From the IMG/VR virus record IMGVR_UViG_3300043567_000723: a stretch of 64,000 nucleotides of DNA; one strand, given 5' to 3'. This document shows positions 883 to 62,294 of this stretch, piece by piece; the first letter of the stretch is position 1; every line of letters starts with the position of its first letter. Under the pieces are notes generated by a model that was given only the letters and a program-made list of their open reading frames with translations, ran no database searches and had not been told where the DNA came from. The translations under genes were made by a program, and so were the position numbers. The stretch comes from a virus (taxonomy: Duplodnaviria; Caudoviricetes).

Positions 883-896
883 CAGCATGGAGGCTG
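883..896 (+). promoter_or_regulatory. SD in a CsrA-type hairpin CAGC-ATGGAG-GCTG, upstream of GTG 900
   Basis: 4-bp stem, ANGGAN hexaloop and CANGGANG core read directly from the sequence. Confidence 0.6.
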
Positions 897-899
897 GCC

Positions 900-3284
900 G
901 TGTATAACAAAAAAGCTAAAGAGTCGTCCGTTAAGCATCTGCTCAACGTCATGCGGTCCTATGACCGGACCCAGACTAAGTACGCTGATTTAGGCGGAAA
1001 AGGTGATGACACTTCTTTCGAGCAGTCGTTTAGCAATCTTGCGCACGCCTATCTCCGCGACTCAGCACCCAAGCTCCTTGACCACGAGATCGGTTTCCAG
1101 CTTCTCGACCGTAATCGCGAGAACACCAAGGCTGTCGGTGTATTTGCGTTTAAAGTTGGTTCGATGTGGCTGTACGCGCCCGTGTTCTTTTTAAACGGCG
1201 ACCTCAAGGGCCACGAACTGCTGTATATCAAGAATCAGGACATGTTCGTGCCGCTCAAGGAAAACTGGATTAACTATCTGATCAACCGCAAGCCCAACAT
1301 TCTTGGTAGCGGCGTCGAGCGCAATCTGTCTAATCTCGGCCAGCGCCAGCCTGACTTTACGCAACTCTCTCGTAGCCCGTCGAAGTTTGGTTCGGCGAAA
1401 CCCACGCTTAAAGAGATGATGACGGCCGCTATGCCGGCGTTCGCCAAGAGCGCCACATTAAATACACAACAAACCTTCGCTGAACTCGGTGAAGCGTTAA
1501 ACCTGAAAACGTTCTTAAAGCAGGCTGGTTTAGACGTAATCGGCTCGTTAATTAAAATGTGCCAGTACGCGCCGCAGGTAGCCAACGCAATCGACGAGTT
1601 TCACGGTTTAGATATCATCAAAGAAGCAATGGCTGCTGCCAAGCTTCGCGAAGCCGCCTCGACTACCAAAGTTGCCAGCGTACTGTCGGAAGCACCTAAG
1701 ACGCCCGAAGCGGCCAAGGGTCTCAAGGTCATCGCGTATGACGCTACAGTTCAGACCAAACTGCCGGCTGGTCATACAGAAGAAGATCAAGAGAAGTTAC
1801 TGCGCGACGGTGTGCTGATCCAAGACCAACGCGACCGCGACAATGTCTCGATCCCTTACAACATTCAGGTCGAGAAAAAGCTGTTCAATCCGACCGAAAG
1901 CGGCCTGTACGAGATCCTCGTCAAGCCCGGCGATATTGAGCGCTGCTACGTGGCTGTGCACCCGCAAGGCGCTGCCAAGCGCGAGAACTTCATTACTGTT
2001 GTGCGCACAGACGGCAAGCCTGACTGGCTTAATACCCGCGCTGACCAAGTGTTTGCGCTGTCGCGCGTTGAGGGCGAAGAGTTTGACAAGTGGTTCGACG
2101 CCCTGCCCGAAGCCAACAGCGTGCCCAGCAAAGACGCGCGGTATATCGCACTTAGCAAGCGCGGTGACTGTACGGCTCCGTTCCGCGTTATTCGCGAGTA
2201 CGGCAAGTCGGAGCACGACATGCAGTGCTACGAAGTGCATCTTGAAGATCACTCGAAGTATCCGCCCAAGGGCAGCATTTGCGGTAGCTGCTATACAGAC
2301 CCTCTGAACTATGACAAGTGGCGTGACGGTGTTCGCATTCACCTGAACGGTAAGAAGGGTTCCAGCCTGCGCGCGAGCATGGGCGACATCTTCGTGCCGG
2401 AAGGTTTCAAGCTCCTCAAGGTGAGCAAGGGCGCAGACGATGAGGACACGGTTAAAGATCAGGACGCATGTGGTTGCGGCGAGAGTGATCCGCCGGCCCT
2501 GCAGCCCGGCAACCTCGTTGACGCGCAACTGGCGCTGATGGGCAAGACTGCCGCCTTAACTGTGTACCACAACGGCACAGAGGTCAGCATTAACAAAGAA
2601 GCCAGCCTAAGCCCCATCAAGGCGCTGGTCACACTTGTTGAGCACCACGGCCTGCGTGAAGAAGCTGCCCGCGAGATCTTAAAGCAAGCGTCTGCCAAGA
2701 AGAAGTTTGAGTGCCGCGTGAAGTACGCCGATCCGTACGGCGGCGCAATGCTCGTCAACAGCGCCCCGAACGCCCCGACAGATCCGGGCCCGGTTATGGG
2801 CGGCGAAAGCATCATGGGCACCAGCGTTCCGACCCAGCTCGGTATTGACGTTGGTCTGCCTGTGTCTGGCATGAGCGCGAGCAACACAGACCGCAGTGTT
2901 TACAACCCCAACACGCAGTTTGATAAGCGAGACGTGCGGTCTATCGTTGACGCCGCGCAGAGCGGCCAGCGCGAAGTATTTGACACGGCCATGGTGGGCA
3001 CAATGTTGCGCGCTGTACGTGACGACTCGCTGGTTGACCGGTATATGGGCGAGCTGACCAAGGGGTTAGACAAACTTGGCCGCATTTTATTTATGTTTTA
3101 CTGGCACGGCGATCGGTTTGCTGAGCGTTATGGCAAGTCCGACATGCCGGAACTAGAAGATTCGCTGCGCAACGCGTTTGAAATGCTCGGCGACGTTATT
3201 CTGTTCCTCAAGCAGAAAACAATTGAACCGTATCCCGAAGAGGCCGCGTCGGATATCGATCTTGGCGCTACCGCTAACGTTTAA
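900..3284 (+). CDS. Large conserved-looking phage protein, probably head-associated
   Basis: Long ORF; start moved to GTG 900 because GGAGG lies upstream. First gene of the head module, with several K-x-A motifs (TKYA, AKSA, LKQA, VKYA). Confidence 0.6.
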   Translation: MYNKKAKESSVKHLLNVMRSYDRTQTKYADLGGKGDDTSFEQSFSNLAHAYLRDSAPKLLDHEIGFQLLDRNRENTKAVGVFAFKVGSMWLYAPVFFLNGDLKGHELLYIKNQDMFVPLKENWINYLINRKPNILGSGVERNLSNLGQRQPDFTQLSRSPSKFGSAKPTLKEMMTAAMPAFAKSATLNTQQTFAELGEALNLKTFLKQAGLDVIGSLIKMCQYAPQVANAIDEFHGLDIIKEAMAAAKLREAASTTKVASVLSEAPKTPEAAKGLKVIAYDATVQTKLPAGHTEEDQEKLLRDGVLIQDQRDRDNVSIPYNIQVEKKLFNPTESGLYEILVKPGDIERCYVAVHPQGAAKRENFITVVRTDGKPDWLNTRADQVFALSRVEGEEFDKWFDALPEANSVPSKDARYIALSKRGDCTAPFRVIREYGKSEHDMQCYEVHLEDHSKYPPKGSICGSCYTDPLNYDKWRDGVRIHLNGKKGSSLRASMGDIFVPEGFKLLKVSKGADDEDTVKDQDACGCGESDPPALQPGNLVDAQLALMGKTAALTVYHNGTEVSINKEASLSPIKALVTLVEHHGLREEAAREILKQASAKKKFECRVKYADPYGGAMLVNSAPNAPTDPGPVMGGESIMGTSVPTQLGIDVGLPVSGMSASNTDRSVYNPNTQFDKRDVRSIVDAAQSGQREVFDTAMVGTMLRAVRDDSLVDRYMGELTKGLDKLGRILFMFYWHGDRFAERYGKSDMPELEDSLRNAFEMLGDVILFLKQKTIEPYPEEAASDIDLGATANV

Positions 3285-3293
3285 AGGTGAATT

Positions 3294-3677
3294 ATGCCTA
3301 GTACAGTTTGGTCCGGTAGTGTTTCGTTTACAGCCACCGGCAGCCAGTCGAACACAATCGCTGTACCGATGCCGCACCGCGCGACATTGCGCGGCTACAG
3401 CCTCGTCGAGTCGGCGGGTGGCGCAACTGGCAATTTTACGGCTGCGCTGTACACCAGCAAACAAGACACGGCACCGAACAACACGCTTCCGGCCGACTCT
3501 TTTAAATTAATGTCGTTTGACCAGACCGCAGCGTCTAATAACAATCTGAACTTGTCGTACGTTAATCGCGACGGAACGCCAACAAATCCGCAGCGTTATC
3601 TCTACCTCAAAATCACACCGGCTGCGACAAAAACGCTGGTGTTTTCTGTAACCGTCGATACCCCGACGCTTCGATAA
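3294..3677 (+). CDS. Hypothetical protein (127 aa), beta-rich, possibly structural
   Basis: ORF tightly packed in the operon, with AAGGTG SD upstream. Confidence 0.6.
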   Translation: MPSTVWSGSVSFTATGSQSNTIAVPMPHRATLRGYSLVESAGGATGNFTAALYTSKQDTAPNNTLPADSFKLMSFDQTAASNNNLNLSYVNRDGTPTNPQRYLYLKITPAATKTLVFSVTVDTPTLR

Positions 3678-4625
3678 ATGAATAACACGTTGCGTGATAG
3701 CCCGCGTCGTGCTCCGCACTGGCGCTGGCTGCGTGCTGTTGAAATCGACGGCGGTGGTTTTCGCGCGTCCCGGAATATTGACGGGCCCGATGGTTTTATC
3801 TGGATTCGCCGCGCCCTAAAACTCAAGCGGCATTTTGAGCGAGCTAATAACAGGCCGCAGGCGGTATACGCGCTGCTGTACCGAGACCGCGACCTGTTCT
3901 GGGCGCATGCGATTTGGAGCGAAGATAAGTCGCCAACGCGCTGGGCAATAGAGGCGCGTATTTTAGCTGGCCAGACAGACGAAGAAATTGCGCAAAAAGC
4001 TGGCACAGAACCGGGCGTCATCGCAGCTTACGCAAATACATTTTTCGACGTACGCGATAAATTAGATCGCATGGATTACGTCCAAAACGTAGTTATGGCT
4101 GACGCCGTAACGCGTGGGCTACAGGAGCGGCACTATGACCTGCTCTGGAAATTGCTCGGTTTTCGCGGCGGTCCTCACGTAATTGATGCAGTAATTAATA
4201 AGTTTCCAAACGTGAATCGCCCAGAAAACGCGGACGGTGTTTCTGGCTATTTTCAAGATATGGCGATCAGTAGCATGAAATATAAGGCCGCCATAGCCAG
4301 TTTGAGCGTTCCAATTAATACACATACACAGTTACCATTGCTCGATTCTTTTGTAAAATATGTAGAAATCGAGCGGACGACGGATAGTACCAGCAAGGCA
4401 CACGCAACGATTGTCGAAAATATCGGCGCGATGTTATCTGCACTTCCGTTCAAAGTGGGTACAAAACTGGATTCGGCAGCTATAAAAATGTTACCTTACG
4501 ATAACGGGGCTGCCGAGTTACGAAACGATGAAATGATGATTGTGGCTACTGGCGGCTCGCTGGATAATCAAACGATCATCCAAGCACTGCATTACCCGGA
4601 GAATACCGATGCGGGCACTAAGTAA
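3678..4625 (+). CDS. Hypothetical protein (315 aa) with possible HTH-like segment
   Basis: Abuts the upstream stop. The segment ARILAGQTDEEIAQKAGTEPGVIAAY resembles an HTH. Confidence 0.55.
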   Translation: MNNTLRDSPRRAPHWRWLRAVEIDGGGFRASRNIDGPDGFIWIRRALKLKRHFERANNRPQAVYALLYRDRDLFWAHAIWSEDKSPTRWAIEARILAGQTDEEIAQKAGTEPGVIAAYANTFFDVRDKLDRMDYVQNVVMADAVTRGLQERHYDLLWKLLGFRGGPHVIDAVINKFPNVNRPENADGVSGYFQDMAISSMKYKAAIASLSVPINTHTQLPLLDSFVKYVEIERTTDSTSKAHATIVENIGAMLSALPFKVGTKLDSAAIKMLPYDNGAAELRNDEMMIVATGGSLDNQTIIQALHYPENTDAGTK

Positions 4626-8498: not shown

Positions 8499-9878
8499 AT
8501 GGCACGGATGCAACGTTCACTGTTCGCTCAACTTAATGCTCTCGCCGAAGAGATCGCGCAGAGCCCCATCAAGTCGGCTGCTGATAAGTCGGCTTCTCCC
8601 GTGCCGGCTGATCCGGGTGGCTATCAGGGTGCGTCTTCGCATCCGACTACGACCGCCGACAACGGCGTCCAGAATGCTTCGACCGGTGCCCGTGCGTCTG
8701 AGTACGCCGCCGACATCAAGAAGCAGCAGGGCGCTCTTGCTGTAGACAACACACCTGAGCTTTCGCAAGAAGGTCGTCAAGACGAAGTTCAAACGAACAT
8801 TGGTCTTGCCGCTAAGGCGACTGGCGAAGATCCCGCCAATGAAAAAGATTTCAAGGGCACGAAAGATGATCCGGGTACTTCGTCGCCGGTTAAGGCCGAT
8901 GACGGCGAAAAGTATAGCACGGTAACTTTCAAAGAAGCCCGTGAGCGCGCTGGCAACCTCGGTAACGATATCCTCGCTAACCTCATCAACTTTGGTGTTA
9001 GCAATCTTCAAGGTGAGAAGGCCGCTGAAATGCCGGCTTTCCTCAAGGAGAAGATGGAAGGAAAAAAAGAGGAAGCCGGTGAATCCGCCAAGCACGAGGC
9101 CACTGAATCACCGGCTGCTGAAAAGGCCGAACACAGCGGCTTAAAGGGCGACCAGCACAAGCTCGACACCGACAACGACGGTAAGATCGAAGGTTCTGAT
9201 CTTGCTGCGCTTCGGAACGACAAGGCTGCTGCCTTCAAGGCTGGTTATGAACTTGCTGCGCATCTCGGTCTGAACAAAGAAGCTGCTGAAGCTTCTGTTC
9301 GCGACGTGTGCGCTAACACGCTTCGTGAAGCCGACGAGATGGCTGACCTGTTCATTGGCTTTGTAACTTCGAAGTCCGCTGCTGCTGATCCGACCGAAGA
9401 AGCTGCCGAAGGCGAAGATCACTCTGCCCCCGGCGACGCCGACTCGGGCATGGGTGACGCCCCGGCTGCCGCGCCTGCTGGCCTTGAGGCCATGATGGGT
9501 GGCGAGGGTGGTGCTCCTGATATGGCGCCCGAAGAGACCGCCGGCGGCGAGCCGTCGGAGGACGAGGCTGTGCAGGAACTTGCTATGGCGCTTCAAGAAC
9601 TCGGCATCCCGCCGGAAGCTCTTCTGCAAGCCCTGTCGCAAGGTGGCCAAGGTGGCGGTGACGCCGCTGGCGCTCCCGCGATGGAGCCGCCGATGGACCC
9701 GGCTATGGCCGGCGCTGACCCGAAGATGGCCGCGGCTAACGACCTTAACCTGATCGGTCACGCTGTTGTTAACTTTAAGCGCGCCGGTAAGTTTCAGATC
9801 AAAGAAGCCCGCACAAAGCGTTCGCGCGAACTGCGGGACATGATGAAACAGCACGTTCTTGAACTCGTAAACCGGTGA
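8499..9878 (+). CDS. Putative capsid scaffolding/prohead core protein
   Basis: Acidic, low-complexity and Ala/Pro/Glu-rich, between protease and capsid genes. Has the GDQHKLDTDNDGKIEGSDLAALR motif, many K-x-A motifs and a strong AAAGGAG SD. Confidence 0.6.
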   Translation: MARMQRSLFAQLNALAEEIAQSPIKSAADKSASPVPADPGGYQGASSHPTTTADNGVQNASTGARASEYAADIKKQQGALAVDNTPELSQEGRQDEVQTNIGLAAKATGEDPANEKDFKGTKDDPGTSSPVKADDGEKYSTVTFKEARERAGNLGNDILANLINFGVSNLQGEKAAEMPAFLKEKMEGKKEEAGESAKHEATESPAAEKAEHSGLKGDQHKLDTDNDGKIEGSDLAALRNDKAAAFKAGYELAAHLGLNKEAAEASVRDVCANTLREADEMADLFIGFVTSKSAAADPTEEAAEGEDHSAPGDADSGMGDAPAAAPAGLEAMMGGEGGAPDMAPEETAGGEPSEDEAVQELAMALQELGIPPEALLQALSQGGQGGGDAAGAPAMEPPMDPAMAGADPKMAAANDLNLIGHAVVNFKRAGKFQIKEARTKRSRELRDMMKQHVLELVNR

Positions 9879-9879
9879 T

Positions 9880-9891
9880 AACACGGAGGTT
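9880..9891 (+). promoter_or_regulatory. SD in a CsrA-type hairpin AAC-ACGGAG-GTT (ACACGGAGGT)
   Basis: Exact match to W-CANGGANG-W, 5 nt before ATG 9896. Confidence 0.6.
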
Positions 9892-9895
9892 TTTA

Positions 9896-10321
9896 ATGTC
9901 TACTGCAAATAACGCGCTCGTACAGAAAATCATCGATTACATCGGTTACTCCGATGCCGCGATGACCAAAGCCGCCGCCGCCGACAAGGCGCAGGTTGAA
10001 ACCAGCGAGAAGCTGGCCAGCCTGATCCCCGAAGCCGTAAAGGTGTGCGTGGAGAACGAGCGGATTGAAGCTCACCAGAAAGAAGCGCTCGCTGCAGCTC
10101 TTCAAGATCCGGTGCGCACAATGGAACTTGTTATCAAATTAGCTGCGCATAAAAACGCTGCTGAAATGGCTCGCCTTGGTACACCGGTCGCCACAAAGAC
10201 GGCCGGCTATGACCCGACGAGCAGCCTGACGAGCGGGTATGTGGGTGCCCGCGATGGTCGCCTCAAGGCTTCTGATGTGAAATTTTTCACTGGCCTTGGT
10301 CTCAACCCGCCCACTACCTGA
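9896..10321 (+). CDS. Head-module hypothetical protein
   Basis: ATG 9896 with SD; helical, with K-x-A motifs (EKLA, IKLA, HKNA, TKTA). Confidence 0.65.
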   Translation: MSTANNALVQKIIDYIGYSDAAMTKAAAADKAQVETSEKLASLIPEAVKVCVENERIEAHQKEALAAALQDPVRTMELVIKLAAHKNAAEMARLGTPVATKTAGYDPTSSLTSGYVGARDGRLKASDVKFFTGLGLNPPTT

Positions 10322-10358
10322 GTTTCGTCCCTTACCTGAACACGTTTCCAATTGCTAA

Positions 10359-10372
10359 AGACACGGAGGTCT
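10359..10372 (+). promoter_or_regulatory. SD in a CsrA-type hairpin AGAC-ACGGAG-GTCT
   Basis: 4-bp stem with ANGGAN hexaloop, directly upstream of ATG 10377. Confidence 0.65.
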
Positions 10373-10376
10373 AACA

Positions 10377-10964
10377 ATGCCTGCTCCTGATCTTATGTTT
10401 GAACACGGCCTTGACGTCAAAAAGGGCTGGTTTGATATGGCGTCCCTTGACTACTCGGCCAAGCTGAAAAGCACGGTCTCTTACGATGTTCCGCGCGGTC
10501 GCGTGGTGCATCTGCAGAAAGAGAGCGGCAAGGACGTTTTCGCCCCCGGTGTTTCCACCACGGGTGTTGCTATTTTCTTGCTGAACGGTTCGGCAGATGC
10601 TGACGTCAGCAATCCGGGTACCACAGCGTCCGGCGCCTTCATGCATCAGGCTGTTTCGCCCTCGGGCAAACTGTCGGGTCTTGTCGCGACCGGTGGTTAT
10701 GAAATTGCCACCACCGAGTACGTGAAGACGTCCGGCAATCCTGCTGTGGCCGTGGTTTACAGCCCCGGCGATCTTCTGACTGCTCCCACCACCGGCGGCT
10801 CGACTGTCGAGGGCGTGCTGACGAAAGCCAGCGCTGTGCAGTACGTAAACCCGGTTTGCGGTGTTGTTTCGAGCGGCGCGGCCAAGAACCACAATGGCGT
10901 GGACACGCTTTCCTTCTGGTGCGTGTACCTGCCGGCTGGCACCGCGGCGACAATCAACGCTTGA
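10377..10964 (+). CDS. Putative capsid decoration/cement protein
   Basis: 195 aa, Gly/Thr/Val beta-rich, immediately upstream of the major capsid gene. The YSPGDLLTA...GVL pattern is typical of head stabilising proteins. Confidence 0.6.
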   Translation: MPAPDLMFEHGLDVKKGWFDMASLDYSAKLKSTVSYDVPRGRVVHLQKESGKDVFAPGVSTTGVAIFLLNGSADADVSNPGTTASGAFMHQAVSPSGKLSGLVATGGYEIATTEYVKTSGNPAVAVVYSPGDLLTAPTTGGSTVEGVLTKASAVQYVNPVCGVVSSGAAKNHNGVDTLSFWCVYLPAGTAATINA

Positions 10965-10983
10965 TCTATCCCTAACTAATTCA

Positions 10984-10999
10984 GGAACATGGAGGTTCC
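10984..10999 (+). promoter_or_regulatory. SD in a CsrA-type hairpin GGAAC-ATGGAG-GTTCC, upstream of the major capsid gene
   Basis: Perfect 5-bp stem with ATGGAG hexaloop; ACATGGAGGT matches W-CANGGANG-W. Confidence 0.7.
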
Positions 11000-11003
11000 C
11001 AAA

Positions 11004-11930
11004 ATGCCCACTCAGCAAGAAATCCAACTGCTTAACGAGACGCTTTTTGAGCAGCTTGATACCCCCGGCATGCAAAAGCAGGCCATTGATGCGGTTAACG
11101 ATTTCACGCGCACCAAGATGCGTGAAGACGGGTTCTACCGGCGGATTATGCCGCCGCTGACTATCACCAACGACGAGCTGGACCGTCAGGTTGACACTGA
11201 CAAGCCCGTCAAGGTTGTGGACAAGGAGCCCGATTCCCCGGCGGCTGTGTCGCTTCCGTTCGCGACGCTCCCGATCAACTTCTACATCCGTGGCCCGCGC
11301 TACCGCGTCATGTTTGACCGGATCGTGTCGCCCCGCGCTGTGAAGGACGTCGACGAGCTGCGTACGTATGTCATCGACATCCGTCAGGTTCTGTCGGACA
11401 ACATGATCAAGGACATGCTGGCTGAAGAGGACGGCAAGTTTATTGCCGCCTTCAACGCCGTCCTGCCGACTGCTGGTGTTGCTAACGTCGCTAGCGGCGT
11501 TGTGCAGTACGAGGAGATCAGCGGTGGTATCACCCGCGAAACGCTGGTGGACGCCCTGAAGGTCATGCCGCGCACGCCGTCGCACTTTGAGGTTGAAACT
11601 TGCCTCGTGAATAACATCACGATCAAGGAACTCCTCAAGTTCGGCCGCGACGAAATGGGCGGTGACTTCTCGCAGGACATCATCAAGAACGGTTGGGCGG
11701 AAACCAACTTCCTCAACTGCCGCTGGATCGTCACGATCAAGCGCGACCTCGTTCCCGATGATGCCATGTTCATGTTCGCCTCGCCGAAGTTCATCGGCAA
11801 GAACTACGAGCTGGAGCCCACCACGATGTACATCCGTCGTGAGGCGTTCATGCTTGAGTACTTTGCGTATCAAACATCCGGCGGCTCGTTCGGCCATACG
11901 AACGGTCTCGCTCGGGTTGACTTCAAGTAA
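11004..11930 (+). CDS. Major capsid protein (HK97-fold, inferred)
   Basis: ~308 aa with strong C-ending codon bias. REDGFYRRIMPP...EPDS.A...F...YIRGPRYRVMFDRIVSP...KDVDELRTY..DIR pattern; follows protease, scaffold and decoration genes. Start set to ATG 11004 because the SD covers ATG 10989. Confidence 0.8.
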   Translation: MPTQQEIQLLNETLFEQLDTPGMQKQAIDAVNDFTRTKMREDGFYRRIMPPLTITNDELDRQVDTDKPVKVVDKEPDSPAAVSLPFATLPINFYIRGPRYRVMFDRIVSPRAVKDVDELRTYVIDIRQVLSDNMIKDMLAEEDGKFIAAFNAVLPTAGVANVASGVVQYEEISGGITRETLVDALKVMPRTPSHFEVETCLVNNITIKELLKFGRDEMGGDFSQDIIKNGWAETNFLNCRWIVTIKRDLVPDDAMFMFASPKFIGKNYELEPTTMYIRREAFMLEYFAYQTSGGSFGHTNGLARVDFK

Positions 11931-11965
11931 TGTCGTGTAAGGATTAACACCTAAAGGAGCACGTT

Positions 11966-12352
11966 ATGGATAACGTTAAAGAGGCGGCAGAGCAAGCGTA
12001 TGCCACCATCGTGGCGGAACTTGCCGCGCCGTATTTCTTCGAGAAGCTTGCCGCGCATGGGATTGCCCCGCGCACGGAAGGCGAGGCCGCAGAAATGTGG
12101 TCGGCCGCTTCCAAGCTTCATGTGCTCTACACGGCGGAGCAAGAAAAGGCCGCGGCTGCGCAAGCATCCGAGCTAGCTGCTACTAACCAGCAGCTGGACG
12201 CGATGCTTGCCGCCGCGGGCCTTGGCGGCACAGTTGAAAAGGCGGCTGCTTTCGGCGGCGCGGCTAACGTCGCAGCGGATCAACCTGAGATCGCTCAGGC
12301 TGTTCTGGTGCTTCAAGCCGCGGCTGCTACAGCTCTGCAAAGCGCATCTTGA
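11966..12352 (+). CDS. Ala-rich head-module protein
   Basis: AAAGGAG SD; K-x-A motifs (VKEA, FEKLA, QEKAA, VEKAA). Confidence 0.65.
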   Translation: MDNVKEAAEQAYATIVAELAAPYFFEKLAAHGIAPRTEGEAAEMWSAASKLHVLYTAEQEKAAAAQASELAATNQQLDAMLAAAGLGGTVEKAAAFGGAANVAADQPEIAQAVLVLQAAAATALQSAS

Positions 12353-12370
12353 AGAATGGAGTAACTAACA

Positions 12371-12694
12371 ATGCCAGTACCCGGTTTATACACGACAGTT
12401 AAGAACACTTCGGGCGCTGCCCGCGTGTTCGGTTTCCTTGGCGCCCACGGCAAGCGGCTCGAATCAAACGCAACCTACACGGTTCCGGGCGATCTCGTGG
12501 CTAAGCTTGGCAACGGCGGTAGGGACAGTCAGCGACAATTCAAGGCGCTTGAAAAGGCCCTTGAAACAAACAAGATCGACATTTTAAGCTCGCCCGCTGT
12601 TTACCTGCTCGACGCGAACGACAATAGCGTCGATCAGCTGCGGGTCAACGCCAACACTCTCGGCACGGTAACGCCGCCGACAGGTTGGACTTGA
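12371..12694 (+). CDS. Hypothetical head protein (107 aa)
   Basis: GGAG SD; last gene before a strong hairpin. Confidence 0.6.
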   Translation: MPVPGLYTTVKNTSGAARVFGFLGAHGKRLESNATYTVPGDLVAKLGNGGRDSQRQFKALEKALETNKIDILSSPAVYLLDANDNSVDQLRVNANTLGTVTPPTGWT

Positions 12695-12721
12695 TTAAAA
12701 GCAAATCGGTCTGAATCTTTA

Positions 12722-12753
12722 CAAGGGCTGGCTGCGTAAGCGGCCAGCCCTTG
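12722..12753 (+). terminator. Terminator/stabilising hairpin ending the head operon
   Basis: CAAGGGCTGGCTGC-GTAA-GCGGCCAGCCCTTG: 14-bp stem with GNRA loop; the U tract is weak. Confidence 0.7.
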
Positions 12754-12758
12754 CTGTT

Positions 12759-12784
12759 TGTATACTAGAGCTATAGCACGGAGG
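12759..12784 (+). promoter_or_regulatory. Putative -10 element (TGTATACT) and CACGGAGG SD for the neck operon
   Basis: TATACT at 12761-12766; CANGGANG at 12777-12784 (stem weak). Confidence 0.45.
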
Positions 12785-12789
12785 GATAT

Positions 12790-13782
12790 ATGGTCGTTAT
12801 TGCCACACCCGTTTCTCATCCCATTGTCCCGTGTTGCTCTGGCGACAGCGCCGGTCAGCAGGTAGCGCCAGTCGCTTGCGCGACACAGAACGTCATAAGC
12901 GCGCCCGTCTCGACGGTTAACGGGAAACCGCTGCTGACCCGCATGCGCGCCATTACCGTCACACAGGGCCAATGCGCCACAGTTGCGTGGCAGCTACACG
13001 ACCGAGAAGGTCACCCCGTTAATATCGCGCCATGCGTAACAAGCAATAACTTTAAAATCGTTTTACGGTTAAAAGAACAGTTATCTCTCGGCAATCAGAA
13101 CGCACCTGTAGAGGTTAACGCGACTATTGTCGACGCGGCGACCGGTAAAGTTTCCGCATCACTGACATCCGCCATGACAGGCGTACCCGGTGTGTACTAC
13201 GGCGAAATGGCGATGGTGAGCGTGCCCGCGCAATTGAGTCAGCAACCGTGCGTGATCTTTTCAAACACGTTTTCGCTGATCATTGCGCGCAGCACGTTTG
13301 ACAGCGTAAACCAGATCGGCGGGCCGCCCAGTATCGCCGAAATTCGGCTGCACCTGCGGGACTCAGCGCCGGGCGAGAGCTTTCTTTTAGATAACCTCAT
13401 GTTTGACGACGCAGAAATTGCGCTGGCGATTGCGCGACCGGTTCAGTACTGGAATGAAGTGCCGCCGCCGATTGACGCTGTATACAACACGCAATCATTT
13501 CCGTTTAGATATCATTGGCTGGAAGGTATATGCGCCAATCTGTTTTTAATGGTGGCGGAACAATTTAGGCGCAATCAGCTCGACTATACCGCGGCCGGGT
13601 TGTCAATTAACGACCAGAATAAAGAGTCGGGATATGAGCGCGCAGGCCAAACACGGTGGCAGGCGTACCGCGAGTGGGTGCGGGCTACAAAGGCTAGCAT
13701 CAATCTGGAAGGCTGCTACGGCGAAGTCTCGTCGTCGTATAAATATTCTTCGTACACCGACGCGCTTCGTATACGTTATTGA
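12790..13782 (+). CDS. Putative head-tail adaptor/neck protein
   Basis: Position after capsid genes. N-terminal beta-sandwich; C-terminal EIRLHLRD...FDDAEIALAI...YWNEVPPP, as in head completion proteins. Confidence 0.55.
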   Translation: MVVIATPVSHPIVPCCSGDSAGQQVAPVACATQNVISAPVSTVNGKPLLTRMRAITVTQGQCATVAWQLHDREGHPVNIAPCVTSNNFKIVLRLKEQLSLGNQNAPVEVNATIVDAATGKVSASLTSAMTGVPGVYYGEMAMVSVPAQLSQQPCVIFSNTFSLIIARSTFDSVNQIGGPPSIAEIRLHLRDSAPGESFLLDNLMFDDAEIALAIARPVQYWNEVPPPIDAVYNTQSFPFRYHWLEGICANLFLMVAEQFRRNQLDYTAAGLSINDQNKESGYERAGQTRWQAYREWVRATKASINLEGCYGEVSSSYKYSSYTDALRIRY

Positions 13783-13835
13783 TGTTGTGAGTGGGTTAAC
13801 ATAACTATTCCCGTCTAAACCGCGCGAAACGTCAA

Positions 13836-15083
13836 ATGCCTCAATCTGTTGTTTTTCCCTTCCGTCGCGTATCTGTGGATCATATGGTCCGCGGTACAAC
13901 ACGTGTTTGGTGGCAATTAGACCGGGTATTTAATCAACCCGGCCCGTATGTCTTTCAACTGCAATTAGGCAAAACCGGTTTAAGAGACGCAGCCGACTGG
14001 GTAAATATCGGCCCGCCAGTTGTAAACGGTTACGCGGCTTACGACCCTATTTGGCGCGAAGCCGGCTACGACCTACTCGACCATTATCGCGTAGTTCTTA
14101 CGACGCCTACTGATGTTTACGTCTCGCAGGCAGCTAGTTGCTTCGGAGATTTACCGGAGCGCGACTGGACGTTAGCGCGTGAAATTATCAGAAAAGAGCA
14201 ATTGCGGTTTCAGTATGTTGCCACGCCGGGTTACCTATTAAAACCATTCCGCTTTGGTAAACCATGCCGTAGATGCCGCGACGAGCTAACGCAAGAAGTA
14301 CTAGACTCTGACTGCCCTGTTTGTAGCGGTACGGGTTTTGAAGTTGGATATCACCCGCCGCTTGCGCTGCAGTGCTGGGATATCTCGCCGCAAACAATTC
14401 AAGAAGATGTAGACGCAAACATAAAGGGTTCGACACGAGAAAGCCCGTATATCACAGCCCGCGTCATCGGTTTCCCTGCAATTAACAAAAACGATATTTG
14501 GGTAAACGGATCTAGCGACGAACGATGGCTAGTTGAAACAATTCAAATAGGCGCGGCAATTCGGAACGTGCCGATTGTTTACCAGATTAAATTAGGTCTA
14601 ATTCCGTTTAGCAACACAGCGTACGCTATCGAAATCGGTGGAGAGCCAGCCGCGCGCGTAGGCCCGACATTGCCGATAGAAGGCTGTGGGGCTATTCCGG
14701 TCGACCACAATCACGGCGGGCTGGATGAGCTTGTTTACAAAGATGCAAGCGATTGCCCTATTGTGGGTGCGCGTGTGTATATCTTTGACAAAACCATATT
14801 TGAAATTAGCGGCGCGCAGACGTCAAAGACATTAGCGCTTGGCAGCACAACGACAACCGCAAACGGGCGCTGGACGCAATCGCTTAACCTAGACCCGGGC
14901 GAATATGCCGTAATGTTTGAAAAGCCGGGAGAATACGGTCCGGATGCTACTTTTATCGTCGTTACTTCTCCTTCTGCTCCGTTAGCTGTTTCATTACCGG
15001 CGCCAGAAGTTATTTCAGTCGTTACGCCGCCGCCAGTTGTTGCAGCGCCGGTTAAAGCTGTAAATGATTTTTGGGAGATATAA
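13836..15083 (+). CDS. Putative neck/head-closure protein with Zn finger and C-terminal Ig-like domain
   Basis: CRRC...CPVCSGTGF motif; C-terminal PIVGARVYIF...TTTANGRW...LDPGEY carboxypeptidase-regulatory-like domain. Confidence 0.55.
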   Translation: MPQSVVFPFRRVSVDHMVRGTTRVWWQLDRVFNQPGPYVFQLQLGKTGLRDAADWVNIGPPVVNGYAAYDPIWREAGYDLLDHYRVVLTTPTDVYVSQAASCFGDLPERDWTLAREIIRKEQLRFQYVATPGYLLKPFRFGKPCRRCRDELTQEVLDSDCPVCSGTGFEVGYHPPLALQCWDISPQTIQEDVDANIKGSTRESPYITARVIGFPAINKNDIWVNGSSDERWLVETIQIGAAIRNVPIVYQIKLGLIPFSNTAYAIEIGGEPAARVGPTLPIEGCGAIPVDHNHGGLDELVYKDASDCPIVGARVYIFDKTIFEISGAQTSKTLALGSTTTTANGRWTQSLNLDPGEYAVMFEKPGEYGPDATFIVVTSPSAPLAVSLPAPEVISVVTPPPVVAAPVKAVNDFWEI

Positions 15084-15239
15084 GTGGAGAAAAAAATTAA
15101 CCCTGCCGAACCGTTATTGAGCCGTGTTGCTGTTGGGTTAGATAAACTAAAAATAGGCGAAAAGATCAAACTTTTCACCGAGAGTAAAAAGGATCATTTA
15201 CGTGAGTACTTGCGACGAACCAAATCCGCCAGAAATTGA
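15084..15239 (+). CDS. Small basic hypothetical protein (51 aa), not in the ORF track
   Basis: GTG directly after the upstream TAA, GGGAG SD, open to TGA 15237-15239 (MEKKINPAEPLL...RRTKSARN). Confidence 0.4.
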   Translation: MEKKINPAEPLLSRVAVGLDKLKIGEKIKLFTESKKDHLREYLRRTKSARN

Positions 15240-15912: not shown

Positions 15913-15954
15913 CAAATTTTTATGGTGGGTGTTTTTTTATTGAAAGCGGAGTTG

Positions 15955-16009
15955 TGTATACTACGCTCTGAACGCCACACCGCACACACGATATTTAGGC
16001 ACGGAGGCT
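15955..16009 (+). promoter_or_regulatory. Putative -10 element (TGTATACT) and CsrA-type SD hairpin GGC-ACGGAG-GCT for the sheath gene
   Basis: TATACT at 15957-15962; CANGGANG at 16000-16007. Confidence 0.5.
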
Positions 16010-16014
16010 GACGC

Positions 16015-22687: not shown

Positions 22688-22702
22688 CTGAAGGAGCAGG
22701 TT

Positions 22703-37391: not shown

Positions 37392-37412
37392 TCGCACAAT
37401 TTTACCGCCGGA

Positions 37413-37426
37413 GGACAAGGATGTCC
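37413..37426 (+). promoter_or_regulatory. CsrA-type hairpin GGAC-AAGGAT-GTCC overlapping the start codon
   Basis: ACAAGGATGT (37415-37424) equals the core of the CsrA SELEX consensus ACARGGAUGU and includes ATG 37421. Confidence 0.65.
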
Positions 37427-56637: not shown

Positions 56638-56841
56638 GTGCTTGTTGTCTCGCGAAAAAGAGAGCAAGAAGTAGTTATCTGTATTGGTAACGGTGTTGTT
56701 GTGAAAGTTTTAGAGATCAACGGGGATCGCGTCAAGATTGGCGTAACCGCGCCGCCCACCATATCGGTGTTGCGCGGCGAGTTGCTTGACCCCAAGAAAA
56801 AGAAGAGAAAGAAAAATGGGCTGGAACGACCGGCTACCTGA
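56638..56841 (+). CDS. csrA: Carbon storage regulator CsrA/RsmA family RNA-binding protein
   Basis: MLVVSRKREQEVVI...VVVKVLEINGDRVKIGVTAPPTISVLRGEL aligns with the CsrA consensus, including the Arg of the V(H/L)R(E/G)E motif; basic C-terminal tail. Confidence 0.92.
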   Translation: MLVVSRKREQEVVICIGNGVVVKVLEINGDRVKIGVTAPPTISVLRGELLDPKKKKRKKNGLERPAT

Positions 56842-57263: not shown

Positions 57264-57337
57264 TGGTGGAGGTTGGATTCGAACCAACGTCCTCTAGCTT
57301 ATGAGGCTAGCGAGCTACCGGGCTGCTCCACTCCACG
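57264..57337 (-). tRNA. trnM: tRNA-Met(CAT), initiator-like body
   Basis: Minus strand: CGTGGAG TG GAGC-AGCCCGGTA-GCTC G CTAGC-CTCATAA-GCTAG AGGAC GTTGG-TTCGAAT-CCAAC CTCCACC A. Has a C1:C72 mismatch and an A11:U24 pair. Confidence 0.9.
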
Positions 57338-57343: not shown

Positions 57344-58528
57344 CTACTCCGAGAGCTGCGCCAGCTCATGCAGGCGCTCAAGCGGAAGTAGTGTTTCAAA
57401 AGCCGCGGCTTTAACAACCGCGCCCGCATTCTTTTCCTGCATTAAACGGTCTAATGTCGCCGCCATGCCGCGGTCCAGCGTCGGCACAAGTGCTGCCAGC
57501 TTATCGCGGTCCATGTAAACGCCGCCGGCGCTTACCGCTTCGGCAAAATCATCGCCGAGCCACTCGCGCACATCTTCAACCGCTAGCTTCTCAAGATCTT
57601 CTAGCGCGTAAACGTTACCGGTAGTAGTCTCGACGTTTTGACTCATAAAATCGCGGGCGACCTTTTCGGTAATCGCAAACAAGACTTCTTCCGGCCGAGA
57701 TAAACCGCCGGCATCGTACATGCGGTTTAAATTGGTGTTACGGTCAAAATCGTCGACCGCGCTCGCCAACTTTAGACGCATGTCAGTGTCCCGAGCCCTA
57801 TCCGGGTTCTGGTCAATGACTGCTGCTAACTTGGACAACTCAGCGGAAAGCGCCCCATGGCTGCGCTGCGTGAGCCGTACGCGATCTTTGAGCATTTGGC
57901 TGGCCACCTTAGCTGCACAAGCACCTAAGCCAGCGGCCAGTTCAAGCGCGCCGTCAGCGTCCGATACGTCGGCACTGTATTCGGCGGCCTTTTCAAGAAT
58001 TTTTGTGGCAATAACGTGACGGTCTGCGAACACAAAATTATCGCGGAACTCCCTGAAGTGCGCGGCAGCAAACTTTACTTCCGACGCATTTCGTAACGGC
58101 CAGTGACGTTCCTTACCGCCGACGTCGCTAACCCAGACGATAGCGAATTCAGAGTCAGGTAGGCTGTTTAAATCCTGCGCGCCAGCAGCGGCCATTTTCT
58201 CTTCCAGCTCAGCAATAGTGCCGGAAATGCCAAAATATTCGGCTGCTTGGTGTATCTTAGATTTAATGGCGGCGGCTTCCTGCGCGTCGAAGTTTGCTTG
58301 CTTGTCCATAAAGAACAGCGCAGACATCCATGTTGCGGGAGCCGTGTGACACGGATACAGTTTATTGCGCTGATCGGCGTACAGGTGTCGCGGTAAGGAT
58401 TCCGTGGCTGCGCCAGTTCTGTCTTGTGCGGCACTTTTAACGAATGTCGGGCACGGATAAAGCGTAGTAAGCCTGTGGGTCTCGCGACCACTTACATCGT
58501 GCGCCTGATCGAGCGAGATATTTGTCAT
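57344..58528 (-). CDS. Head-related protein with LPDSEFA...RHWPL domain (DUF6582-like) and K-x-A motifs
   Basis: AGGTAGGA SD. LNSLPDSEFAIVW...ERHWPLRNASEVKFAAAHF...IATKILEKAAEY is a pattern seen in phage head/scaffold proteins. Confidence 0.6.
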   Translation of the reverse strand: MTNISLDQAHDVSGRETHRLTTLYPCPTFVKSAAQDRTGAATESLPRHLYADQRNKLYPCHTAPATWMSALFFMDKQANFDAQEAAAIKSKIHQAAEYFGISGTIAELEEKMAAAGAQDLNSLPDSEFAIVWVSDVGGKERHWPLRNASEVKFAAAHFREFRDNFVFADRHVIATKILEKAAEYSADVSDADGALELAAGLGACAAKVASQMLKDRVRLTQRSHGALSAELSKLAAVIDQNPDRARDTDMRLKLASAVDDFDRNTNLNRMYDAGGLSRPEEVLFAITEKVARDFMSQNVETTTGNVYALEDLEKLAVEDVREWLGDDFAEAVSAGGVYMDRDKLAALVPTLDRGMAATLDRLMQEKNAGAVVKAAAFETLLPLERLHELAQLSE

Positions 58529-58565: not shown

Positions 58566-61157
58566 ATGGGCGCCCTATCGGCATTGGGCGTTGCGCCAGA
58601 AAACCCGTCTTTTCCGGCAGTCGTTCGTTGTCCAGTCTGTCAACAGAATACTTTACACCTGTTTGACGATTTAGTCACCGACGGTATCTGGCTGCACTGT
58701 AATTCGTGCTTAGCCCATGGAGATATCATAACCTTTGCGACGTCAATATGGAATACAAGCCTGCCGGACGCCCTTGACCGTTTTGCCGACTTAAACCTCA
58801 TAAATCGCGGCGAAAAAAATAATATGGCCGGCGAGATTGAACGATCTCACAGGCGGCAAACAGATCTTGACCATTTCTGGGTAGACGTGGAATCGCAGGT
58901 CTGGAACCACGGCGATGACGTTATTTCCTGCCGATTACGCGAACTGGGTGTGGCACACGAAATTAACGCTAACGGTTTAGTCGGCGTTGCGCACACAGAC
59001 CAGATCGCCAAGATATGCGCCGACCTAGGCCGCCCTCGCCCTAAAAATATTAGAGCCGGTGGCGCCAGCATTGTGTTCCCGTACTACGATCTGCCGGGTC
59101 GTTTTTCTGGTGTCTTGTTATCGCAGTACAGCGATGACTTTGACGTCCGACATACATATATCCCCGTGACAGGGTATAAACGCCGCCGACCAGAGGCCGG
59201 TTATTTTCTACTCAAAACAATGCTGTTGTCGCCGCCAGAAATATTAAAAAACACGCAATTTATTCTGGACGACCCGTGCTGGGTTCTGCAGTTACAGTGT
59301 GATCAATTAAAACGCGGGTTGTCGCTGCTGCCGTTAATTTCTAGTTACACAGGTAATGAAGCAAACAGTTACGGTAAAAACTGGGCGTCCTTCCAGCCAA
59401 TTGCGCGGTTATTTCAAAGCCGCAGCACATCCCCGGAGTTAATAAGCCGGGTGTGTACGGCGCGCGGTTACGTCTGTATCGGCGGGCAACGAAACCCGAA
59501 CGCACGCGACGCCAACGATGCAATTAAGCAGTTGGCTAAAATTCGCAAGAGCGCGGAAACGTGGCAAACAAGCTTAGCGAATACGCTCGGCCACATGAAC
59601 GAAATATCAGCGCATTCGTTTGCCAGCCGTTTAACAATATCGGCTGACAAATTGAGTCCTTTTCTGCAAAAAATCTCGGATAAGTTTTCTGCCGGTTTTA
59701 CAGATCGCGTGTTGGCAAACGCACTGATCTCGGCGCCGCTTGGTACCGTGCAAACCCCGCGGCGGTGGATGGTCACGCCGCGGTCTGACGGGTGGTGGAA
59801 TTGCGCAAACCACCGCGTGTGCTCGGCTAATGTTGTTATTCAAAAAATAGTGCAAGCTGACGACGGCGATAAAACATATAGCGGCGTTATACACCTAAAC
59901 GGCGAGCAATTTGAATTCTCCGACAACGCTAAAAAAATTGAAAGCATGGGCTTATTGGCTTATGCGCAAGCGTACATGGCGCCAAAAAGAAAGCTCTTGG
60001 TATTTGATCGCGCGTGGAATCGCCGCAGTCATTTGATATCAATTGAGTTAAATAACCCAGAACTCATTAGCGTGTCCAGCCGACTTGGTTGGGATGAGCG
60101 TTCCGGCGTATTCCGGTTTTCAAATTGCGAACTTACAAACGAGGGCGCAATTACACCGACAATAATTCCGGTAACTAAAAAACAACGAGTCGCATTTCCC
60201 GAACCAACGCCTGTTGCGCCGCCAGCAATCAGGCAGTTTTTAACGCCAAGCTACGAGAACGCATTTACATGGACGGTCTTTGCCGCCATTGCCGCTGAAT
60301 TGATAAACCCAATTTTGCGGCGCGATCCAGTAGCCACAGGAATACCCGGCCAGAACTTCAACACTGCCGCCAGAATCGGCGCCGCCCTTGGTTGCGAACA
60401 GACGCAATCGTCGGCGCTCAAGCGCAGCCACGTAAGCCGGCAGCTGTCTGAGGCCTCCGACAAAGCTGACTGGCCGTTATTCGCTGCCAGCCCGTTCGAC
60501 GACGCGAGCTACAGTGCCGTTGTTCCGAAATGCCACAACCGGTCGATTTTCGTAAAGATCAACCAGCTTAGTGCCGTAATTGCGCCCAGCTACAGCTGGC
60601 AGGTTATTCACGGGCGTGCCGCGCCAGCTACCACAGATTTTTCTGTTTTGCGGCACGTTTTACCGGCGTATATCCAGCGCGCTCTTAGATCCCGGATGCG
60701 CCTAGCGACACTAAATAAGAATACGACAATCGCCGTTTTGACCGACCTACACGCGTGGCTGCAAGAGACATACGAAGCTAGTTTCCAGCTGAATTACGCA
60801 ATAAACCAGTTAACGACGCCAGCGCAGGCACATATAGCTCTTATGGAGGAGCTACAGCGCGGGGTGGCCCTTGGTCAATTAGCGGTAGTACCCCATCCAC
60901 GAAAACACAGACAACCTGTAAACTATCTGGTGCGTAAAAAGGAACACTGGTGGTTGAACCAAAGAGGTATAGACCGCTATTTTTATATCGGTAAAACTGT
61001 CGTTCCTAACTGGTTGCTGATTATAGAATTAATGTCAAATGACGGTGTCTTTATTGCGGAAGAGCTTGTGCGTAATATGCCCGGTTTAATTATTAATACC
61101 CAATGGGGCGATAAGTACCTTTTAACGAGCACTAACGAGGCCCGCGAAATCGGATAA
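58566..61157 (+). CDS. DnaG-like primase-related protein (Zn-binding domain, degenerate TOPRIM) with large C-terminal region
   Basis: CPVC...HCNSCLAHGDII zinc-binding domain; IVFPYYDLPGRFSG resembles DnaG FPI.D..G.VIGF; no clear catalytic ExxxD/DxD or Walker A. Confidence 0.55.
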   Translation: MGALSALGVAPENPSFPAVVRCPVCQQNTLHLFDDLVTDGIWLHCNSCLAHGDIITFATSIWNTSLPDALDRFADLNLINRGEKNNMAGEIERSHRRQTDLDHFWVDVESQVWNHGDDVISCRLRELGVAHEINANGLVGVAHTDQIAKICADLGRPRPKNIRAGGASIVFPYYDLPGRFSGVLLSQYSDDFDVRHTYIPVTGYKRRRPEAGYFLLKTMLLSPPEILKNTQFILDDPCWVLQLQCDQLKRGLSLLPLISSYTGNEANSYGKNWASFQPIARLFQSRSTSPELISRVCTARGYVCIGGQRNPNARDANDAIKQLAKIRKSAETWQTSLANTLGHMNEISAHSFASRLTISADKLSPFLQKISDKFSAGFTDRVLANALISAPLGTVQTPRRWMVTPRSDGWWNCANHRVCSANVVIQKIVQADDGDKTYSGVIHLNGEQFEFSDNAKKIESMGLLAYAQAYMAPKRKLLVFDRAWNRRSHLISIELNNPELISVSSRLGWDERSGVFRFSNCELTNEGAITPTIIPVTKKQRVAFPEPTPVAPPAIRQFLTPSYENAFTWTVFAAIAAELINPILRRDPVATGIPGQNFNTAARIGAALGCEQTQSSALKRSHVSRQLSEASDKADWPLFAASPFDDASYSAVVPKCHNRSIFVKINQLSAVIAPSYSWQVIHGRAAPATTDFSVLRHVLPAYIQRALRSRMRLATLNKNTTIAVLTDLHAWLQETYEASFQLNYAINQLTTPAQAHIALMEELQRGVALGQLAVVPHPRKHRQPVNYLVRKKEHWWLNQRGIDRYFYIGKTVVPNWLLIIELMSNDGVFIAEELVRNMPGLIINTQWGDKYLLTSTNEAREIG

Positions 61158-61162
61158 AAATA

Positions 61163-61513
61163 ATGCGCTATCTAGAGTCCGCATCATTTCGTCACGCAAG
61201 AAAAATAGACGCCAAACACGATGATGGTCTTGATGATGATTTCATCGAAGAGGCGTGGCAATTTGTGAATGACGATGACGATGACGATGATGATGACGAC
61301 GATAGCCTATTCAATTTACCGAAACCAAATTTCTTCATACCTGACGACGAGGATGAAGACGAAGATGAAGATGCCGAATATGTCGAAGATGATGAAGACG
61401 AAGAATACGAAGATGATGACGACGAAGAATACGACGAAGACGACGAAGATGAAGACGATCCGGCATACAATGAAGATTTTGACGTAGACAACGACGAATA
61501 CGATGATGAATAA
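61163..61513 (+). CDS. Highly acidic Asp/Glu-rich protein (116 aa)
   Basis: C-terminal two-thirds are nearly all D/E, punctuated by Y/F. Confidence 0.7.
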   Translation: MRYLESASFRHARKIDAKHDDGLDDDFIEEAWQFVNDDDDDDDDDDDSLFNLPKPNFFIPDDEDEDEDEDAEYVEDDEDEEYEDDDDEEYDEDDEDEDDPAYNEDFDVDNDEYDDE

Positions 61514-61521
61514 AAGGAGTT

Positions 61522-61986: not shown

Positions 61987-61991
61987 TATAT

Positions 61992-62064
61992 GCCGGTGTA
62001 GCTCAGTTGGTAGAGCCACTGATTTGTAATCAGTAGGTCGTCGGTTCGAGTCCGACCGCCGGCT
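61992..62064 (+). tRNA. trnT: tRNA-Thr(TGT)
   Basis: GCCGGTG acceptor, GCTC D-arm, ACTGA-TTTGTAA-TCAGT anticodon arm, GTCGG-TTCGAGT-CCGAC T-arm; CCA not encoded. Confidence 0.95.
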
Positions 62065-62066
62065 TT

Positions 62067-62257
62067 ATGGCAGATACGCGGGGCGCGCGTTTAACGCTTG
62101 AAGTGATAAACGTATCGGGCTGATCCCCTGAGCGGACGAAGCTTGCGGACGGGGAAGAAATGCAGAGTTGATCGCTGCTGTTGTGTACCCGTATTAAATC
62201 CTGAAATGACAGGAAAACAAAAATTTATCACAGCCGGTTCGACTCCGGCCTGCCATT
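62067..62257 (+). ncRNA. tRNA-like structured RNA with ~130-nt internal domain
   Basis: ATGGCAG/CTGCCAT 7-bp acceptor-like stem, GCCGG-TTCGACT-CCGGC T-arm, ACGCG/CGCGT D-like hairpin, GTGATAAA/TTTATCAC closing stem. No canonical anticodon arm. Confidence 0.65.
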
Positions 62258-62263
62258 ATTAAT

Positions 62264-62294
62264 TGGTATAATCCATAGTTAGTCACGGAGGACT
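62264..62294 (+). promoter_or_regulatory. Extended -10 promoter (TG-G-TATAAT) and CsrA-type SD hairpin AGTC-ACGGAG-GACT
   Basis: TATAAT at 62267-62272 preceded by TG-N; 4-bp hairpin at 62281-62294 with ANGGAN loop. Confidence 0.6.

Follow-up and report, generated by a model that had tools for sequence, protein, structure and literature searches.

Candidate CsrA-type hairpin operators on the ribosome-binding sites of a large csrA-bearing tailed phage and its relatives

Here, we examined a 64,000-nucleotide stretch of tailed-phage DNA (Caudoviricetes; IMG/VR record IMGVR_UViG_3300043567_000723), hereafter called the window, in which eight translation starts carry a C-ANGGAN-G core and a small gene, csrA, encodes a homologue of the bacterial regulator CsrA/RsmA. 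At most of these starts, the core forms the loop of a short hairpin placed over the Shine-Dalgarno sequence (SD). The loop and its closing pair are conserved on covarying stems among relatives of ~200 kb, and the arrangement is over-represented only in the clade that carries csrA. From this comparative evidence, we consider it probable that the sites are translational operators of the CsrA/RsmA type, each acting as a single site and served at least partly by the phage's own CsrA.

Hairpin sites of the window and their conservation

The window has a GC content of 52%, belongs to a large tailed phage and carries nearly all of its genes on the plus strand. A pattern search recovered all eight C-ANGGAN-G sites cited in an earlier note made from the sequence alone, together with the stems listed there, the site at 12777 having the closing pair only (Table 1). 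The word CANGGANG occurs at chance level in the window (26 copies against 23.7 expected). The placement of CANGGAGG is non-random, as seven of its seven copies in the window lie on SD sites, each 5-8 nucleotides (nt) ahead of the most plausible start codon in a long open reading frame (ORF). These starts are 900 (GTG), 9896, 10377, 11004, 12790, 16015 and 62299; with 37421, they are the true starts at the eight sites, and they differ from the longest-ORF starts. By our own gene calls, the CA-N prefix precedes seven of the nine GGAGG SDs of the window (binomial P = 6 × 10−8), so that the seven counted in the earlier note stand, against a denominator of nine rather than about ten. Six of the seven CA-prefixed SDs close a hexaloop hairpin. 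The SD-preserving shuffles proposed in the same note gave a clear result: across 20,000 shuffles with GGAGG held fixed, none reached seven CA-prefixed or six stemmed SDs, the maxima being 4 and 2, respectively.

Overall, a stem of 3-5 base pairs (bp) surrounds A-N-G-G-A-N at seven of the eight sites. The loop is the SD itself at seven sites, 5-8 nt ahead of the start, and at 37416 the hairpin covers the AUG. Specifically, CAAGGATG at 37416 overlaps the AUG of gene 37421, the closing G being the last base of the AUG, and the SD of this gene is the GGAGG at 37410-37414, within the 5' arm. This hairpin had been listed as a site on a translation start, which holds for its position at the AUG; the GGA at 37416 is not the SD.

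Table 1 Hairpin sites and the csrA gene of the window (loop bases in square brackets; aa, amino acids).
Feature	Position	Strand	Context
Hairpin cagc[ATGGAG]gctg	883..896	+	on SD of 794-aa gene, GTG start 900
Weak hairpin aac[ACGGAG]gtt	9880..9891	+	on SD of 141-aa gene 9896-10321
Hairpin agac[ACGGAG]gtct	10359..10372	+	on SD of 195-aa head-module gene 10377-10964
Hairpin ggaac[ATGGAG]gttcc	10984..10999	+	on SD of major capsid gene 11004-11930
CACGGAGG, closing pair only, no stem in this genome	12777..12784	+	on SD of 330-aa gene 12790-13782
Hairpin ggc[ACGGAG]gct, one G-U	15998..16009	+	on SD of 1059-aa sheath-like gene 16015-19194
Hairpin ggac[AAGGAT]gtcc	37413..37426	+	between SD and AUG of 702-aa fibre-like gene 37421-39529
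Hairpin agtc[ACGGAG]gact	62281..62294	+	on SD of 142-aa GNAT-like gene 62299-62727
csrA, 67 aa, GTG start	56638..56841	+	Pfam PF02599, E = 3.5 × 10−16, 59.3 bits (cut-off 27); phrog_9500

A near-DNA search of cultured phages found no relative of the window, the nearest cultured matches being capsid proteins only 27-28% identical, from Salmonella phage Arash and Vibrio D69-like phages. In IMG/VR, a capsid protein 56-99% identical to that of the window is encoded at 65 loci, whose contigs span 170-235 kb and correspond to phages of ~200 kb. The closest of these relatives are only ~79% identical in DNA, which makes them useful for covariation analysis. In related loci, the leaders of the capsid gene, gene 10377 and the sheath gene keep C-[A-N-G-G-A-G]-G and their stems covary. 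The capsid leader retains C-A-Y-G-G-A-G-G down to ~64% protein identity with compensatory changes in the stem (ggaac/gttcc, agaac/gttct, aagac/gtctt, gcac/gtgc, taac/gtta, cgatc/gatcg and gac/gtc). In an ungapped alignment of capsid leaders anchored on the SD (alignment A1), 86% of cells were paired compared with 67% in shuffles (0/500), double-sided changes numbered 34 against 8.7, and all slid controls were far lower. Likewise, in the leader of gene 10377 (alignment A2), 84% of cells were paired compared with 67% when shuffled (0/500), with a covariation score of 0.42 against 0.17. The leaders of the sheath gene and of genes 900, 62299 and 37421 showed the same covarying behaviour, as judged by eye. 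The covariation first suspected from the differing flanks of the window's own sites is thus found as compensatory change across a wide phage family. Furthermore, U-G closing pairs and G-U stem pairs occur, indicating that the structure resides on the mRNA strand.

Orthologues of gene 900 keep C-ATGGAG-G on a different stem (gccgc/gtggc), and sheath leaders of relatives carry aggc/gcct, gaggc/gcctt or ggc/gcc. The 12777 site has 3-bp stems in relatives (gtaa[C/T]ACGGAGGtt(c/t)ac). The least constrained of the sites is that at 9880-9891, where most close relatives have CACGGAGG and some carry CCCGGAGG or CTTGGAGG. The 37416 hairpin is kept in four relatives, with C at the N position in G007 and a loop one base shorter in G010, and the stems at 62284 covary in G010, G007 and G009. 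The 62284 hairpin is the tip of a longer helix (AUCCAUAG...CUAUGGAU; window 62254-62313) that also pairs the AUG, with a minimum free energy of −21.5 kcal/mol; a 15-bp version of this helix is present in G010, and the GNAT-like gene lies downstream of a tRNA. Two additional SD hexaloops that had been listed without the CA core, at 22688 and 61510, are present in the window, although relatives keep neither, and both were rejected as operators.

Among the gene assignments, that of the capsid is based on a tblastn match, 28% identical, to the annotated capsid protein of Salmonella phage Arash, that of the sheath on a partial match to phrog_279 over residues 850-952, and that of the fibre on a weak, partial tail-fibre PHROG match. 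Annotation with PHROG and Pfam left most target genes and their neighbours without a match. Within 12722-12766, a strong terminator-like hairpin (GGGCTGGC...GCCAGCCC) is followed by a conserved TTGTATACT at 12758, ~20 nt ahead of the 12777 site; TTGTATACT is retained in many relatives and may be a promoter for the phage's own RNA polymerase. DNA near-identical to window positions 9800-16100 was found in the lake-water metagenomes of ~15 studies and, in small parts, in freshwater metatranscriptomes; the phage has a wide distribution in nature and is transcribed there.

Family-wide geometry, phyletic distribution and the phage CsrA

The genome-wide census covered 11 whole IMG/VR relatives, eight from the csrA clade and three without csrA, as well as csrA-less Arash and Vibrio D69, and its unit was a GGAGG followed at 4-10 nt by an ATG opening at least 80 codons. 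In the eight csrA-clade genomes, 89 of 243 GGAGG SDs were CA-prefixed (37%, against ~6% expected) and 66% of these had a stem of at least 3 bp, compared with 15% of the other C-prefixed SDs in the same genomes. IMG/VR genomes without csrA yielded 15 CA-prefixed SDs out of 209 (7%), with such a stem in 7%. Counted on the GGAG core, Arash (8%) and Vibrio D69 (6%) were at baseline. Hairpin sites precede 12-36 genes per genome in the clade and 8 genes in the window.

A scan of 56 loop registers revealed a sole hot spot, in which the base at −3 on the 5' side pairs with the base at +4 on the 3' side of GGAGG and pairing extends outward (0.31 vs ~0.05); the same scan of csrA-less genomes was flat. 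The outer two base pairs, which do not involve the CA dinucleotide, were formed at 68% of CA sites, 33% of UA sites and 13.5% of all others. Position 1 of the loop was A in 75 of 84 stemmed sites (89%) and position 2 was variable, and the closing pair was C-G in 76 and U-G in 8. The presence of a stem is therefore predicted by an unpaired loop base, a composite sequence-structure signal, and this coupling is explained neither by anti-SD pairing nor by simple folding. The flank-plus-core consensus of 70 stemmed sites was W-C-A-N-G-G-A-G-G-W (N = C 45%, U 25%, A 22%, G 5%), and 66% of the pairs adjacent to the closing pair in stemmed sites were A-U or U-A. This consensus equals the (A/U)CANGGANG(U/A) hexaloop known from the RsmE-hcnA complex and from systematic evolution of ligands by exponential enrichment (SELEX). 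Sites of the window and of the family thus combine a GGA core in a short hairpin loop, the extended consensus and overlap with the SD or start codon, the features by which CsrA/RsmA sites are judged, and the resemblance to the CsrA/RsmA consensus proposed from the window holds in sequence, loop size and position over the SD.

With regard to composition, GG/CC-rich words (CCCC, AGGG, GGGA, CCTC, GGAG) are 2.5-4x rarer than base composition predicts on both strands of the window and of G010, G012 and G007. Depletion of GGAGG as a specific signal was rejected, its ratio to the Markov expectation being ~1, in keeping with a general dinucleotide bias of the close clade. The whole genome of G012 (L119-L128) contains zero AGCT in 198 kb against hundreds expected, which looks like avoidance of an AluI-type restriction site; AGCT is not among the most depleted words of its sister genomes.

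Of 27 large contigs, 18 carry the csrA gene; among the 19 that are at least 90% complete, 16 do. In a capsid-protein tree, the csrA-less genomes (Arash/D69, then L062, L057 and L059) form successive outgroups, and one well-supported clade (100/98) holds all csrA-bearing genomes and all motif-rich head modules. The motif is at chance in the five csrA-less relatives (three complete genomes, Arash and Vibrio D69), in which no csrA was found even with a family-specific hidden Markov model at full sensitivity. The expected co-occurrence of motif and csrA is accordingly seen at the level of the clade, with the exception of one lineage discussed below.

The CsrA that had been noticed in the window is a confident Pfam match (Table 1), and the gene looks intact. 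Its product matches solved CsrA/RsmE chains at E = 2 × 10−5 to 3 × 10−4, PDB 2JPP being among the matches. Aligned with 1Y00, VLRGE pairs with VHREE and GVTAP with GVNAP, and the N-terminus reads VLVVSRK. The protein retains the N-terminal strand and an arginine aligned with E. coli R44; the N-terminal L-x-L/V-x-R-K/R and the R44-equivalent arginine are conserved RNA-contact positions of CsrA. A homodimer model scored 0.35, against 0.00 for the best of 3 controls; among proteins with solved structures, 21 of 30 pairs and 0 of 23 single chains attained this mark. Contact agreement between runs was at least 96%, the predicted local distance difference test (pLDDT) was 65-66, and strand 1 paired with residues 32-36 of the other chain. 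Since CsrA dimers have already been solved, this intertwined-dimer model shows likeness only. In a search of 5.8 billion proteins, the relatives of the phage CsrA were all metagenomic copies from the same phage group.

A lysine-rich C-terminal tail (KKKKRKK-NGLERPAT; 56788-56838) is common to the CsrAs of close-clade phages (L068, L070, L080), ending in NGLERPAT or NGLERPSA, and is missing from more distant family members and from cellular CsrA. One high-GC relative (G017) has two csrA copies and carries three AAGGA-loop hairpins within 40 nt (59915-59955, plus strand; L109), which could be a multi-site leader or a small decoy. The window also contains two tRNA genes, at 57264-57337 (minus strand) and 61992-62064 (plus strand), with Rfam scores of 63 and 72 bits. 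The former lies directly downstream of csrA on the opposite strand and adjoins a 394-aa minus-strand ORF (57344-58528) with a sub-threshold DUF6582 match. A search for the host returned only fragments of metagenome-assembled genomes among GTDB contigs and CsrA relatives without bacterial names; the source DNA is found in lake-water metagenomes. A match to 'Acinetobacter phage MD-2021a' was dropped as a phage comparison, as it is a bacterial contig.

Proposed mechanism and alternative explanations

If the sites are CsrA operators, a short mRNA hairpin would present the SD core in a hexaloop, A-N-G-G-A-G, closed by C-G (rarely U-G), and both this loop and its closing pair would be held by a CsrA dimer that competes with the 30S subunit. 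This dimer would most likely be phage-encoded, possibly helped or replaced by host CsrA. How much free CsrA is present relative to target mRNA would then govern translation of these strongly initiating genes, so that timing or yield would be controlled by titration. As each target has one site and an SD of maximal strength, output would respond steeply to that ratio, and translation might be delayed or capped until the regulator is outnumbered by late transcripts. The basic tail conserved in the phage CsrA leaves room for another outcome, for example activation. In this scheme we infer the binding of CsrA, the identity of the CsrA that binds and repression as its effect; the direction of control and any role in timing or stoichiometry are conjectural.

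Several observations weigh against an operator function served by the phage CsrA. Both csrA and the motif arise on one branch of the tree; their joint appearance is thus one evolutionary event rather than replicated evidence, and their co-occurrence could be a coincidence. In the close clade, G009 (82% complete, 168 kb) and its sister G031 have no csrA between the orthologues of its flanking genes, and no csrA was detected anywhere in the 168 kb; G009 nevertheless has 8 of 21 SDs CA-prefixed, six of them stemmed. Hence, the link between motif and csrA expected by the earlier note holds for the clade as a whole and fails in this lineage. Either csrA lies in the missing fifth of the genome, or host CsrA suffices, or the hairpins work without CsrA. 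The slot of csrA in G009/G031 (L220:17700-20000, L221:1-100) is occupied by three unrelated ORFs of 97, 118 and 180 aa without a Pfam match. Additionally, no enrichment of SD hairpins was found in the unrelated csrA-bearing phages F116, Vibrio D65, Providencia PSTCR8lys and Xanthomonas PhiXhv-12 (a 228-kb jumbo phage), so that carriage of csrA does not generally imply an internal regulon.

The hairpins themselves also raise difficulties. In a 60-nt context, ViennaRNA strongly populated only the 10988, 37416 and 62284 hairpins (P = 0.89 for the capsid closing pair, 0.99 for the 37416 hairpin and 1.00 for the 62284 hairpin), the others being marginal as free RNA; this is compatible with protein-stabilised folding and is no proof of it. 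In most CsrA targets characterised so far, one dimer bridges at least two GGA sites, an arrangement that is usual and not universal. Near the operators (−80 to +70), no second GGA site was found above the level of other GGAGG-SD genes, the GGA counts being 1.01 vs 1.13 upstream and 0.63 vs 0.97 downstream. Furthermore, the idea of a regulon of virion genes did not survive the census: of the 15 CA-prefixed GGAGG sites in G010, the nearest relative with a complete genome, 8 belong to genes outside the virion module, namely those of small ORFs without an assigned function, of a GNAT acetyltransferase, of a SEC-C-motif protein and of an M10 peptidase that carries a peptidoglycan-binding domain. 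Finally, with respect to CsrA antagonists, the window holds no Rfam family except tRNA and five complete genomes hold no FliW, and a search for sponge RNAs found no GGA-hairpin clusters in the close clade.

Of the alternative explanations, the one that we rank highest is that the hairpins are cis-acting structural modules of the ribosome-binding site, which hold the SD single-stranded or protect against nucleases with no dedicated protein, csrA being coincidental or directed at host mRNAs. We regard this as unlikely. The sites do sit on the strongest SDs (GGAGG) of abundant virion proteins, and the G009 lineage without detectable csrA, the csrA-bearing phages without hairpins and the single event behind the co-occurrence would all be expected under it. 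However, it accounts neither for the use of a single loop size and register among 56 nor for the unpaired A at loop position 1, which 89% of stemmed sites have and which predicts the stem; moreover, many stems are too weak to hold a structure unaided.

We rank next, again as an unlikely explanation, that the operators are read by host CsrA only, which would tie the phage to the Csr state of its host or let its mRNAs soak up host CsrA, with the phage csrA directed at the host. It is in line with this explanation that the motif is a generic CsrA consensus common to the CsrAs of many bacteria, that G009 keeps it without csrA, and that the published proposals for phage CsrA are host manipulation or anti-CRISPR action (PMC8450108). 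In contrast, Arash and D69 infect genera that carry CsrA (Salmonella and Vibrio, respectively) and yet lack the motif, and within the family the motif appears together with the phage csrA.

It is improbable that some other RNA-binding factor recognises the GGAG of the loop, be it a RegB-like endoribonuclease that cuts SDs or a phage protein without an assigned family. T4 RegB, which cuts GGAG in SD regions, is a precedent, and most phage genes have no assignable function; on the other hand, no RegB family match was found in five complete genomes (in a search that had no positive control), and the conserved A-N-GGA hexaloop closed by C-G is a signature of CsrA rather than a bare GGAG. An origin by chance or from the composition of SD-rich leaders, with which the chance-level count of the CANGGANG word in the window would agree, is refuted by the shuffles, the census, the register scan, the coupling of stem and loop A and both leader alignments, the csrA-less relatives of similar composition acting as empirical controls.

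We therefore retain CsrA-type operators, read at least in part by the phage CsrA, as the probable explanation. More tentatively, the comparative data raise the possibility that the phage CsrA is a viral translational master switch, whose genome-wide hexaloop operators on 12-36 genes may determine the timing and amount of synthesis of capsid, sheath and further proteins; in hosts free of CsrA, this might constitute an orthogonal circuit.

Significance and comparison with known systems

Genes for CsrA have been catalogued in phages since 2020, and the comparative evidence presented here points to targets inside the phage itself. The elements are short, defined RNAs, which makes testing in vitro possible without culturing the phage. 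If confirmed as targets of the phage CsrA, the operators would constitute the first Csr regulon of a virus and provide phage csrA genes with a function, would place CsrA beside RegA and the coat-protein repressors as a viral translational regulator, and would mean that viral genomes can carry a rebuilt version of a global bacterial regulon. They would also supply compact natural operator variants with graded stems, and genes under strong regulation could be predicted from them in uncultured phages of the jumbo type.

Homologues of CsrA/RsmA are known from Pseudomonas phage F116, Burkholderia phage DC1, Serratia phage Parlo and E. coli phage PTXU04 (PMC8450108, PMC7366521, PMC11879866), and an action on the host has been proposed for such proteins (Campa 2021 PMC8450108; Sobrero & Valverde 2020 PMC7366521). 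Knock-down of the csrA homologue of PTXU04 led to small plaques, in a study that described the role in the phage life cycle as not previously tested (Adler 2025 PMC11879866). The literature searched contained no description of CsrA sites located on the genes or ribosome-binding sites of a phage itself. Our results suggest that what is new here is the presence of CsrA-type hairpins on the SDs of the phages' own genes in csrA-bearing phages; bacterial Csr regulons and phage repressors such as RegA are known. The phages described here share with known carriers a small CsrA gene and, unlike F116, D65, PSTCR8lys and PhiXhv-12, have SD hairpins as well.

The putative operators resemble those of bacterial CsrA/RsmA (E. 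coli glgC; Pseudomonas hcnA with RsmE, PDB 2JPP) in their A-N-G-G-A-N hexaloop, closed by C-G and placed over the SD, and block of 30S binding, the outcome expected of the bacterial operators, would likewise be expected at the phage sites. They differ in that the phage leaders have one site, the targets are viral and the regulator is encoded by the virus. In addition, the sixth loop base is fixed as G, since the loop is GGAGG itself. The leader of B. subtilis hag is similar in that an SD-bearing hairpin precedes the gene of a very abundant structural protein, and there CsrA links translation to assembly; unlike the phage leaders, hag has two sites and an antagonist, FliW, that is released by the structural protein, FliW being absent from the five complete genomes searched here.

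Among phage systems, the RegA regulon of T4 is comparable as a case in which a phage protein acts at the ribosome-binding sites of many of its own mRNAs, the corresponding binding being a prediction here. RegA is unrelated to CsrA and binds loosely defined AU-rich sites on early mRNAs, whereas the candidate sites in the csrA clade form a defined hairpin and include late structural genes among their targets. The coat-protein operators of MS2 and Qbeta belong to RNA phages, number one per genome and have another fold and sequence; they are alike in being a short hairpin over a translation start, through which a small viral dimer sets timing and stoichiometry.

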